A stretch of DNA of 64,000 nucleotides from Thermoplasmata archaeon (GCA_021816725.1 JAKAXD010000001.1:313257-377256), one strand, 5' to 3'. Numbered from the stretch's first letter, positions 17,875-20,494 are shown. Translations and numbers: made by a program. The notes: generated by a model from the sequence alone, not told the origin.

Positions 17875-18342
17875 CTAGATGGCGATTGACCCGTCTTTAA
17901 TAAGTTTTTGTATCTCCCTAGGATCCTTGCCATCAACTGTAATACCCATCGATACGCATGTTCCTAGCACTTCCATCACCGCTGATTTTATGGAACTCGC
18001 AGTCATGTTGTCTATCTTCATTTCTGCAACCTTCTTTATCTGGCTTACCTTGAGGTCCCCCGATATTTTTGTCTTGGAGGCACCGGTAGCAGTCTCAATT
18101 CCAAGCTCCTTCTTCAGGAGTGCTGAGACTGGGGGTTTTCCAACAGATATTTCAAATTTCTTTGTCTCCGGATCTACTATCACCTTTACGGGTACCTGCA
18201 TACCAGAGAACAGTTTCGTCTTGTCGTTTATTTCCTTCAGCACGAGGCCAATGTTCACACCCATTGGTCCAAGTGCTGGTCCTAGTGGCGGTCCAGCAGT
18301 TGCCTTTCCACCTTCAACCATTACAGATATTTCTTGCGGCAT
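17875..18342 (-). CDS. rpl11: 50S ribosomal protein L11
   Basis: 155 aa. VEGGKATAGPPLGPALGPMGVNI signature. Confidence 0.95.
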   Translation of the reverse strand: MPQEISVMVEGGKATAGPPLGPALGPMGVNIGLVLKEINDKTKLFSGMQVPVKVIVDPETKKFEISVGKPPVSALLKKELGIETATGASKTKISGDLKVSQIKKVAEMKIDNMTASSIKSAVMEVLGTCVSMGITVDGKDPREIQKLIKDGSIAI

Positions 18343-18345
18343 TCT

Positions 18346-19161
18346 TTACACCTCTTTCTCCAACAATTTGACAGAATCAGCTTTCACAGTGAGCGGAATT
18401 GGCACAATGGCATTCTGAAGTTCAAGCGTTATTTCATCCTTCTGACTGTCTACATGGGTAATCCTTGCCTTCTCCCCCTTGAATGGTCCTTCAGTCACCT
18501 CGACGAAATTGCCTACTCCAAGGGACTCCACTGCTGGCTTGGATACCAGATAATTCTCAATCTCAGATAGCTGAACCTCTCCCGCTATCATGTTCCTTGC
18601 CCCTCTCACCGTCCGGAGCAATCCCATGGTCCTATCAGGGTAGAGCGTTTCAATAAAAATATAACCTTTTACGTCCGGCGGAACGAGTATCGAGAATATG
18701 TACTCCTGTTTCTCTATTTTTGCCTTCAGTCCAATATCTCTTGCAATCTTGATCTCCTGGCCAATTGTCGTCTTGACGACGATAATTGTCTGTTTCACCT
18801 TAATGGAGAAGAGATTGCTGGAATTTCCATCGGATTTCAGTACAACTGTTGCGTAATCCCCTATTTCCCCTCCCTTTGGCGTCTCAACGGAGAGCGAATG
18901 GACCTCAATTGCCTTGGGCTTCAGCTTGTATTGTATCTTCAGCAAGTCCTGGTTCTTAGGTGATATAGCTACCTGCTTACCCCTCTTCTGTTCCTCAATC
19001 AAGAACCATTCTATTTCTTCCTTCTGTTCGTGGACATCTAACGAAAGTTCTAAGGATCCTTCTTTCTCCGCTGCTTCTTCATTTTCTATGACCAGGTTGA
19101 ATGGCACCTTCTTATTGGTGCCAACTTCAGAATCCTTGCCGTCACAGCTCCATTTGACCAT
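18346..19161 (-). CDS. spt5: Transcription elongation factor Spt5 (NusG) with an unusual 121-aa N-terminal extension
   Basis: The C-terminal 150 aa are a canonical NGN plus KOW (IIVVKTTIGQEIKIARDI...GYIFIE...; KOW VGNFVEVTEGPFKGEKARITHVD). The ATG at 19161 directly abuts the secE stop (19162-19164). The frame is open for 121 codons ahead of the NGN domain. Confidence 0.85.
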   Translation of the reverse strand: MVKWSCDGKDSEVGTNKKVPFNLVIENEEAAEKEGSLELSLDVHEQKEEIEWFLIEEQKRGKQVAISPKNQDLLKIQYKLKPKAIEVHSLSVETPKGGEIGDYATVVLKSDGNSSNLFSIKVKQTIIVVKTTIGQEIKIARDIGLKAKIEKQEYIFSILVPPDVKGYIFIETLYPDRTMGLLRTVRGARNMIAGEVQLSEIENYLVSKPAVESLGVGNFVEVTEGPFKGEKARITHVDSQKDEITLELQNAIVPIPLTVKADSVKLLEKEV

Positions 19162-19386
19162 CTACGGCACCTTGAAAAGGACGTTCATAAGGAGGTAGAT
19201 GATGAACCCAACCCCCCCTATAATTATAATTCCAATTCCTGTAATCAGTGAAGACTTTCCGAATTCATCCCTGGTTGGCTTTTTTGCCATTTTGAGAATT
19301 CTGGAATACTTTCCTCTACCTATCCTCTTTACTCGTTCTGTAATAGAATCTTCTAGATCCTCTATCCTATCATCCATATCAACCAT
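19162..19386 (-). CDS. secE: Protein translocase subunit SecE (Sec61 gamma)
   Basis: 74 aa. KMAKKPTRDEFGKSSLITGIGIIIIGGVGFIIYLLM gives a single C-terminal TM. Conserved position upstream of spt5. Confidence 0.9.
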   Translation of the reverse strand: MVDMDDRIEDLEDSITERVKRIGRGKYSRILKMAKKPTRDEFGKSSLITGIGIIIIGGVGFIIYLLMNVLFKVP

Positions 19387-19398
19387 ATATGGCTACCT

Positions 19399-20391
19399 CT
19401 AAACGTACTTGTTTTTGGCTCCCACCAATATGGCTAATACCTTTATATCATTTTTCATAGTCTCATCGATCCTTGCGCCCCAGATAATTCTCGCATTTGG
19501 GTTTATCCTCTTCTTTATTTCGTCAAGAACTGTATGCGCCTCTTCTACTGACATGTTTGAACTGCCGGTAACAGAAACTATTGCTGAGGTGGCAGTTGAT
19601 ATTTCGAGGTCCAGCAGTGGAGAACTTAGCGCCTTCTTTGCAGCCTCCAGAGCTCTCTCCTGTGAACCCGATTGCCCCATACCGATCATGGCTGTTCCCC
19701 CATCCTTCATAACAGTCTTCAAATCGTTGAAATCAAGATTTACCAGTCCCGGCTTGGTGACGAGTTCAGTCAATCCCTTTATGGATTTCATGAGGGTCTC
19801 GTCTGCGAACCTGAAGGCCTCATTTAGGGGCAATCTTGGTACTATCTCCAGAAGTTTATCGTTGGGTATGATAACAATCGTATCTGATTTCTCCTTCAGT
19901 TTTTCAAGTCCCCACAGGGCATTCTCCTTCCTCATAGTACCCTCTGACGAGAATGGAGTGGTTACGACTGAAATTACCAGGGCCCCTGCATTCTTCGCCA
20001 CTTCCGCTACAACTGGTGCTGAGCCTGTGCCTGTTCCCCCTCCCATGCCTGCAGTTATGAACACGATATCTGCCCCTTCAACTGCCTCGTTGATGTCTAT
20101 TTCTGCCTCCCTTGCAGACATTTCACCTATCTGTGGTATTGCCCCGGCTCCGAGCCCCCTAGTTGTCCTCTTCCCCAGTAAGATCTTCTTGGAGGCCTGA
20201 GTGAGCAGCAGATGCTGCGCATCCGTATTTGCTGCTATTATGTCTGCGCCCTGTATTCCCTCCTCCATTATCCTGCTGATGGTGTTTGATCCTGATCCTC
20301 CGCAGCCGAAAATTTTGATGCTTGTTTTCAAGCTTTTCAAAACTTCTATTAACTCCGCGTCGGTGTCTTGAAATGTTTCGTTGTCAGGCAT
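19399..20391 (-). CDS. ftsZ: Cell division GTPase FtsZ (canonical, full length)
   Basis: IKIFGCGGSGSNTISRI, NTDAQHL, GMGGGTGTGSAPVVAE (tubulin signature), TTPFSSEG, T7 loop VNLDFNDLKTVM. The ATG at 20391 is preferred over the GTG at 20403 because of the TATA-like atataaatat (minus strand) at 20421-20430. Confidence 0.93.
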   Translation of the reverse strand: MPDNETFQDTDAELIEVLKSLKTSIKIFGCGGSGSNTISRIMEEGIQGADIIAANTDAQHLLLTQASKKILLGKRTTRGLGAGAIPQIGEMSAREAEIDINEAVEGADIVFITAGMGGGTGTGSAPVVAEVAKNAGALVISVVTTPFSSEGTMRKENALWGLEKLKEKSDTIVIIPNDKLLEIVPRLPLNEAFRFADETLMKSIKGLTELVTKPGLVNLDFNDLKTVMKDGGTAMIGMGQSGSQERALEAAKKALSSPLLDLEISTATSAIVSVTGSSNMSVEEAHTVLDEIKKRINPNARIIWGARIDETMKNDIKVLAILVGAKNKYV

Positions 20392-20494
20392 ACTAACTAC
20401 CACTTTGACAAATTATTTCGATATTTATATGTGATGCTGCAAGACCAAGTTATAATCCCAATATCATGAAACTCATCTTCGATAGGAAAAGATG

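Follow-up and report, generated by a model that had tools for sequence, protein, structure and literature searches.

The spt5 gene in a 64,000-nucleotide (nt) stretch of DNA from a Thermoplasmata archaeon (GCA_021816725.1, JAKAXD010000001.1:313257-377256; the whole stretch is called the window below) encodes a transcription elongation factor of the Spt5/NusG family that is predicted to carry a third folded domain. Ahead of the NGN and KOW core, the open reading frame (ORF) extends over 122 further codons whose product is predicted to form a compact immunoglobulin (Ig)-like beta-sandwich, joined to the core almost without a linker. We consider it highly probable that this is a real domain fused to Spt5. 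At the level of sequence, it is demonstrated to be common to all Thermoplasmata Spt5 proteins recovered and kept under selection, in Thermoplasmatales, in Aciduliprofundum/DHVE2 and in further uncultured lineages. Reviews and structures treat archaeal Spt5 as a minimal two-domain protein of about 150 amino acids (aa), and the third domain is unreported, in that no description of it was found in the full-text literature and reviews searched. Neither Pfam nor NCBIfam has a model for it. Long-form sequences have been public for years, and the Thermoplasma acidophilum entry is named 'probable transcription termination-antitermination factor related protein'. The present analysis followed an original prediction, made from the sequence of the window alone, that spt5 has a 121-codon extension lying between the secE stop codon and an in-frame GTG. 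All of its coordinates, that is the ORF at 18346-19161, the ATG flush after the secE TAG, the GTG at 18798 and the length of the extension, agree with the sequence.

Conservation and predicted fold of the extension

By every sequence criterion tested, namely an NGN domain, a single C-terminal KOW motif, the TIGR00405 equivalog model and gene order, the window protein is a member of the Spt5 family. TIGR00405 scored 124.7 bits against a cut-off of 69.95, and aligned to aa 128-270 over model positions 2-143 of 145. Together with the NGN and KOW matches (Table 1), this places the core in approximately the last 150 codons, as had been anticipated. Residues 1-122 of the window protein matched no Pfam or NCBIfam family.

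Searched against 5.8 billion proteins, the window protein had approximately 70 homologues of 271-314 aa, with query coverage of 86-100% and identity down to 34%, and those that are named are Spt5 or NusG of Thermoplasmatota metagenome-assembled genomes. One entry (P0001) is 100% identical to the window protein, which is found in 22 member sequences at 100% identity, and the long-form protein occurs in hundreds of independent assemblies. The 63 full-length homologues align end to end; W52 and P95 are invariant, N27, E51, G101 and D102 nearly so, and the extension is alignable as protein down to approximately 15-20% identity. Scanning one genome per GTDB species gave 80 loci, the closest of which, from 'Thermoplasmatales archaeon I-plasma', has 98% identity and so shows the lineage to which the window belongs. 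The frame is open for 271-349 codons in 79 of these loci, the remaining one being cut by a contig end, and none of the 79 complete loci has a stop codon between extension and core. Cultured Thermoplasmatales all have the long form, including Acidiplasma (299 aa), Ferroplasma (297-298 aa), Picrophilus (285 aa), Thermogymnomonas (293 aa), Thermoplasma acidophilum (299 aa), T. volcanium (288 aa), Oxyplasma (293 aa) and Cuniculiplasma (292-293 aa), and the genomes of Aciduliprofundum/DHVE2 have it too. The alignment of the window protein with that of T. acidophilum begins at residue 4. The ratio of non-synonymous to synonymous substitution rates (dN/dS) of the extension is 0.042 relative to the closest relative. 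For distant pairs dS is saturated, and the dN of the extension, at 0.07-0.44, is far under saturation and 4-7 times that of the core. By these measures the extension is a coding region under purifying selection that evolves faster than the core. The original suggestion of a real extra domain on Spt5 is thus sustained by the long form of all 79 complete loci, by conservation at the protein level and by the low dN/dS, and the comparison of orthologues that had been proposed as its check finds the extension lineage-wide.

AlphaFold2, given the 63-sequence alignment as input for the full-length protein, produced a model with a mean predicted local distance difference test score (pLDDT) of 89.5, and of 88-96 over residues 1-130. 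Modelled in isolation, the domain reached a pLDDT of 94.8 and a predicted template modelling score (pTM) of 0.87, as a beta-sandwich of nine strands. The structure prediction, also proposed as a check, is therefore confidently all-beta, in agreement with the beta-rich extension that had been expected from its sequence. In the full model the strand of residues 113-122 is separated by only two residues from the first NGN strand (125-131), with pLDDT above 93 over the junction. The 50 best matches that Foldseek gave for the isolated domain in the PDB were all Ig-like or beta-sandwich proteins, including the ASH/PapD-like domain of CEP192, major sperm protein, GH123, GH3, arrestin, complement proteins, Spo0M and AlkC. 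These results are consistent with the extension being, as modelled, an Ig-like beta-sandwich. Foldseek matches of the full-length model were dominated by Spt5/NusG, and gave nothing informative on the extension.

Start of translation and synthesis of the long form

The long-form ATG has AAGGTG ahead of it with a 6-nt spacer. An AGGTG stands at the matching place in most loci of the I-plasma clade (L001-L020), and in numerous loci further removed an AGGTG(A) overlaps the secE stop. Abutment or near-abutment of the secE stop and the spt5 start occurs in relatives too; in Oxyplasma meridianum (L032) secE ends at 2967 and the long-form GTG start is at 2968, flush as in the window. The abutting secE stop and ATG, with AGGTG 6 nt ahead, make translational coupling of the long form to secE probable. 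At the internal GTG at 18798, no Shine-Dalgarno (SD)-like motif was found in the preceding sequence, and codon 122 is GTG in 3 of 13 close sequences (the window, L001 and L010), being GTA, GTC, GTT or ATA in the other ten. Just downstream of this GTG, at the start of the NGN coding region, an 11-bp inverted repeat could form a hairpin (18762-18788). Its predicted fold varies among close relatives and is not conserved; it arises because the codons for TIIVVKTTI are quasi-palindromic, and it probably has no functional role.

The long-form orthologue of Cuniculiplasma divulgatum (CSP5_0224) was identified with 16 peptides by mass spectrometry in a published supplement, which gives counts only, by which the N-terminus is not placed. 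Fully cleaved tryptic peptides of 7-30 aa number 6 for the core alone of this protein and 15 for the full protein, and as such the count weakly favours the long form.

Other readings of the ORF differ in what they make of these data. A chance open frame, or an artefact of assembly or annotation, has nothing in its favour but the general expectation that chance can produce long ORFs. At the composition of the window (per-codon stop probability 0.058), the probability of 121 stop-free codons is approximately 7e-4. The original prediction was right that such a run is unlikely, but not in calling the DNA AT-rich without qualification, as the window has approximately 45% GC and is merely moderately so. 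This probability is by itself suggestive, and it is the conservation data that are decisive that the frame of the extension is real. The identical sequences and the hundreds of independent assemblies also speak against chance or artefact, which the conservation data refute, and we regard its likelihood as negligible. It is also very unlikely that only a protein of about 150 aa is made, from the GTG at 18798 or a nearby codon, with the 121 codons as an untranslated or separately used leader. TIGR00405 and all solved archaeal Spt5 structures do span the core alone, the window does have a GTG at codon 122, and the 90% cluster of a 314-aa Spt5 (P0291) holds NCBI records of 153-154 aa. However, ten of the 13 close sequences have a codon 122 that is not of start type, and no SD lies ahead of it. 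The upstream codons are kept as protein class-wide with a dN/dS of 0.04, are never separated from the core by a stop (0 of 79 species loci), and are confidently predicted to fold as a domain that continues from its last strand into NGN strand 1. The in-frame upstream cistron with initiation at the GTG, which had originally been kept as the alternative, is disfavoured on the same evidence. The short records in the P0291 cluster, P0374 (TLZ55114.1, 153 aa) and P0378 (TLZ65283.1, 154 aa), lie among 314-aa proteins, and annotation pipelines therefore appear sometimes to trim the gene to its core. Finally, a long Ig-Spt5 from the ATG might be accompanied by a minor short Spt5 made by internal initiation, so that a cell would have a canonical factor beside the modified one. 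This could be suspected because the window and the two relatives closest to it have GTG as codon 122, and from scattered GTG, ATG or TTG codons near the junction in many distant loci. Two isoforms we consider quite unlikely, as neither the position nor the presence of start-type codons at the junction is conserved, SD motifs precede them in only two loci, codons for V, I and L are expected in a beta-strand anyway, and the hairpin beside the GTG is not conserved.

Kinship, origin and possible role of the domain

The relationships of the domain were seen through its orthologues. The Pfam family FixG_C was matched by 5 of 24 orthologous domains (best E 5.6e-6), and NEW3 weakly by one. Precomputed annotation places PF11614 (FixG_C) ahead of NGN in P0511, P0514, P0515 and P0519, and several Thermoplasmatales proteins have a precomputed FixG_C or WxLIP_PGBD match in this position. 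An HMMER search of 1.84 billion representative proteins with a profile built from the domain matched 59 proteins, 56 of them new. The Spt5 core is present in seventeen of these, which are 213-406 aa long and in several cases truncated; another five are short and resemble contig-end pieces of Spt5, and the remaining matches are mostly large proteins with several matched stretches. All seven of the non-Spt5 matches that were scanned carry NEW3, FixG_C, CARDB or DUF11, and in one of these seven (P0138) nearly the whole length of the domain is aligned and the pattern of motifs recurs. Among the 59 matches the domain was seen neither standing alone nor joined to any other cytoplasmic protein. Ig repeats of NEW3/FixG_C/CARDB type were the sole relatives of the domain to be detected.

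NEW3/NPCBM_assoc (PF10633), FixG_C (PF11614) and CARDB (PF07705) have the same strand pattern as the Spt5 domain, and share with it a signature of N ending an early strand, E-W in a mid strand, and P-x-G-x-x-x-G-D before the last hairpin. Domains of these families occur in surface proteins of archaea and bacteria, are common in those of archaea, and are typically tandem repeats in large proteins of this kind. The Spt5 domain, unlike such repeats, is present in single copy, has no hydrophobic N-terminal stretch, and is found on a transcription factor. From these likenesses it is best described as a diverged single Ig repeat of NEW3/FixG_C type that has been co-opted onto Spt5. In the origin that we propose, a surface-protein Ig repeat of NEW3/FixG_C/CARDB type would have been recruited and set behind secE, ahead of the NGN of a short ancestral spt5. 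A 149-aa Spt5 encoded at 3001-3450 of L081 (GCA_027051165.1), in an ftsZ-secE-spt5-L11-L1 operon where its first 4 nt are shared with the end of secE, plausibly represents the ancestral state before insertion of the domain. L081 and L082 are both short-Spt5 loci, and may bound the trait or lie outside the phylum. A sequence-profile search of the PDB with the domain gave only ASF1, SYF2 and glucokinase, at E of approximately 0.8-0.9. The Ig fold of ASF1-type histone chaperones, which shares a 'LEW' strand, was considered as a relative and rejected, with a PDB profile E of 0.79, an hhalign probability of 29% and a place outside the Foldseek top 50.

NGN is established to bind the clamp coiled-coil of RNA polymerase (RNAP) and to bridge the DNA cleft. 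In the mechanism that we propose, the 271-codon ORF would be translated from the ATG at 19161 into one polypeptide, with the Ig-like domain almost without linker before NGN-KOW. Given that NGN sits on the clamp coiled-coil and that the Ig-like domain is tightly joined to the NGN N-terminus, the domain would ride on the clamp side of the elongation complex, on its outside, and offer a contact surface peculiar to the lineage. The net charge of the N-terminal part does not rise above zero in any of the 63 orthologues, with a median of -4, and because this part is neutral to acidic in all of them we judge a protein partner to be likelier than direct binding of nucleic acid. Candidate partners would be an RNAP subunit, in the clamp or stalk, or another factor, and the contact might stabilise or modulate the engagement of Spt5. 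Of the roles considered, a protein-contact module on the RNAP clamp is the likeliest for the domain, but it is put forward tentatively and with considerable doubt.

Thermoplasmata have been reported to be without TFE-alpha and TFE-beta (PMC4495717, PMC7289017), and TFE and Spt4/5 compete for the same site on the RNAP clamp coiled-coil. As the two share this site, the joint occurrence of Ig-Spt5 and a loss of TFE deserves attention as a lead. The domain could be an adaptation linked to the loss of TFE, and could contact the clamp/stalk region that is normally TFE's. The co-occurrence is at class level only, and we attach little probability to this idea. If it is true, Spt5 may be a combined clamp-control factor already at initiation or promoter escape, or may bind RNAP unlike canonical Spt5.

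Two further roles were weighed against that of a protein-contact module. Direct binding of nucleic acid by the domain, either upstream DNA or the non-template strand, would have parallels in AlkC and in proposals made for extra NusG domains. It draws support from the P. furiosus Spt5 literature, in which NGN residues near the N-terminal strand contact upstream DNA, and from AlkC, with an Ig-like domain in DNA-bound structures, being among the Foldseek matches. It is nevertheless unlikely, as the domain is neutral to acidic throughout the orthologues, AlkC is one of many generic Ig matches (E of approximately 2e-3), and no conserved basic patch is evident in the alignments. The domain might instead take the place of Spt4, as the mini-domain of Aquifex NusG occupies the Spt4 position. 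In an Spt4-Spt5 fusion, the C-terminus of Spt4 appears to be joined to the N-terminus of NGN, and if so the NGN N-terminus would be near Spt4. However, C. divulgatum, a species with long Spt5, still has an annotated spt4 (CSP5_1268, beside rpoE'), and for this reason replacement of Spt4 is highly improbable; the Aquifex and Thermotoga NusG structures also lie outside the top 50 structural matches of the domain.

Several points weigh against our interpretation of Ig-Spt5. Long-form translation in the window organism rests on sequence and predicted fold. The peptide count from Cuniculiplasma is compatible with a short form, as the core can yield 22 peptides when one missed cleavage is allowed, and in the P0291 cluster genes that are nearly identical have been annotated at 153-154 aa. 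The best structural matches of the isolated domain are generic, with E of 1e-4 to 3e-3 and template modelling (TM) scores of 0.36-0.63. The window's own domain falls under every Pfam threshold, so that its placement with NEW3/FixG_C comes from orthologues and the profile search, and the conserved residues are mostly scaffold positions typical of the NEW3/FixG_C-type Ig family. The functional part of the interpretation, including the protein-contact role, is entirely what we infer. Taken as a whole, translation of Ig-Spt5 from the ATG at 19161 as one polypeptide, with the origin and mechanism that we propose, is the best explanation of the data and is likely to be correct.

On this interpretation Ig-Spt5 is a solid change in the architecture of a universal elongation factor, seen throughout the lineage and testable in cultivable organisms. 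A whole archaeal lineage, including the cultivable and biochemically tractable T. acidophilum, has a third, predicted folded domain at the end of a protein that is seated on the RNAP clamp. This opens a way to study how an elongation complex has been adapted in a lineage reported without TFE, and suggests that a typically extracellular Ig repeat has been co-opted into the core transcription machinery. For annotators there is a caution that these genes should not be trimmed to a short form, as has happened in some records.

Gene context and comparison with known Spt5 and NusG proteins

The positions of spt5, its domains and its neighbours are collected in Table 1. By Pfam matches the operon order in the window is ftsZ-secE-spt5-L11-L1-L10, the classical archaeal cluster, and it contains the secE-spt5-L11-L1-L10 order typical of archaeal Spt5. 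No second NGN-KOW gene, no Spt4-like zinc-ribbon ORF and no Rfam family was found within the window. A scan for bacterial-type promoters and terminators gave background level, with models that are not applicable to archaea.

Table 1. Features of spt5 and its operon, in positions of the window
Feature	Position	Strand	Basis or remark
spt5, complete gene	18346-19161	-	271 codons and stop; Ig-like domain, NGN and KOW; ORF list, TIGR00405
Predicted N-terminal Ig-like beta-sandwich, aa 1-122	18796-19161	-	AlphaFold2, alignments, dN/dS, FixG_C/NEW3 links
NGN, aa 126-205	18547-18786	-	Pfam PF03439, 51.3 bits (cut-off 22.4); Foldseek to archaeal Spt5
KOW motif, aa 216-247	18421-18516	-	Pfam PF00467, 32.4 bits (cut-off 22.3)
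Long-form ATG start	19159-19161	-	Flush with secE stop TAG at 19162-19164; read in sequence
SD-like AGGTG	19168-19172	-	6 nt upstream of ATG, within final secE codons
In-frame GTG, codon 122 (V122)	18796-18798	-	121 codons before it; not conserved as start codon
secE, 74 aa, upstream gene in operon	19162-19386	-	PF00584, 26.8 bits (cut-off 22.7)
L11 gene, directly downstream of spt5	17875-18342	-	Pfam
L1 gene	17186-17830	-	Pfam
L10 gene	16331-17185	-	Pfam
ftsZ	19399-20403	-	Pfam

Variation on the long form was seen among relatives. Divergent Thermoplasmata Spt5 proteins (P0068-P0070, P0127, P0133, P0137, P0139, P0148 and P0151) start with a conserved MGL(L/F)(D/E)D(F/L), which is followed by an acidic or Lys/Pro-rich low-complexity tail, with net charge down to -27, and then by the Ig domain. 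The arrangement resembles a short linear motif joined to an acidic region, and in position it is reminiscent of the N-terminus of eukaryotic Spt5. In P0151 and P0215 (363-380 aa) there is an extra segment of approximately 50-80 aa inside the Ig domain, helical-looking by sequence, and P0148 (406 aa) has approximately 100 extra aa in NGN, in the interval between first helix and second strand. By these insertions the architecture of Spt5 is evidently still plastic in the phylum. T. acidophilum (P0447), T. volcanium (P0458) and Picrophilus (P0428) have between the first NGN helix and second strand a charged insertion of approximately 10-12 residues (e.g. KDREDRSGDGKKLPSE), which the I-plasma protein is without. 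Two unrelated archaeal Spt5 proteins, P0109 and P0111 (228-231 aa), have an NGN insertion of approximately 45 aa with the pattern C-x2-C ... H-x3-C (CPWC...HMKGC), which looks like a zinc finger, together with an acidic C-terminal tail, and in P0096 and P0098 the C-terminal tails are long, Lys-rich and acidic.

Canonical archaeal Spt5 proteins from M. jannaschii, P. furiosus and T. kodakarensis (3lpe, 4zn3, 3p8b, 9bct) have in common with the window protein the core of NGN and a single KOW, and the secE-spt5-L11-L1-L10 operon. The core matched 9bct_G, 3p8b_B, 4zn3_A and 3lpe_A in Foldseek at 35-44% identity, with TM scores for NGN alone of 0.85-0.90, that against M. jannaschii 3lpe_A being 0.90 on the target. 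Spt4 is kept in at least one long-form species, as in the canonical system. These characterised proteins are 138-152 aa in length, those with solved structures having 138-147 residues, in line with the figure of about 150 aa originally given for them, and begin at the first NGN strand. In contrast, the window Spt5 adds a predicted folded Ig-like domain of 122 aa with almost no linker.

The nearest conceptual analogue of this domain is domain II of NusG from Aquifex aeolicus (1m1g/1npp) and Thermotoga maritima (2xhc), which is likewise a lineage-specific extra beta-rich domain, with a function that is unknown or accessory, and which according to the review literature lies near the Spt4 position. 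NusG domain II is inserted inside NGN, as an independent, bacterial acquisition, whereas the Ig-like domain of Spt5 is wholly N-terminal to NGN strand 1. Kinship between the two is not supported, as 1m1g and 2xhc are outside the top 50 structural matches of the isolated domain; against the full-length model they reach E of 3e-6 to 1e-4, but with TM scores of only 0.16-0.34. The acidic N-terminal region of eukaryotic Spt5 also lies N-terminal to NGN, a likeness that is positional only and without sequence relationship. That region is disordered and acidic, and unlike it the extension of the window Spt5 is a compact predicted beta-sandwich with no tail. The Ig-like domain of Thermoplasmata Spt5 provides a natural experiment on N-terminal additions to NGN, for comparison with the acidic region of eukaryotes and with domain II of bacteria.

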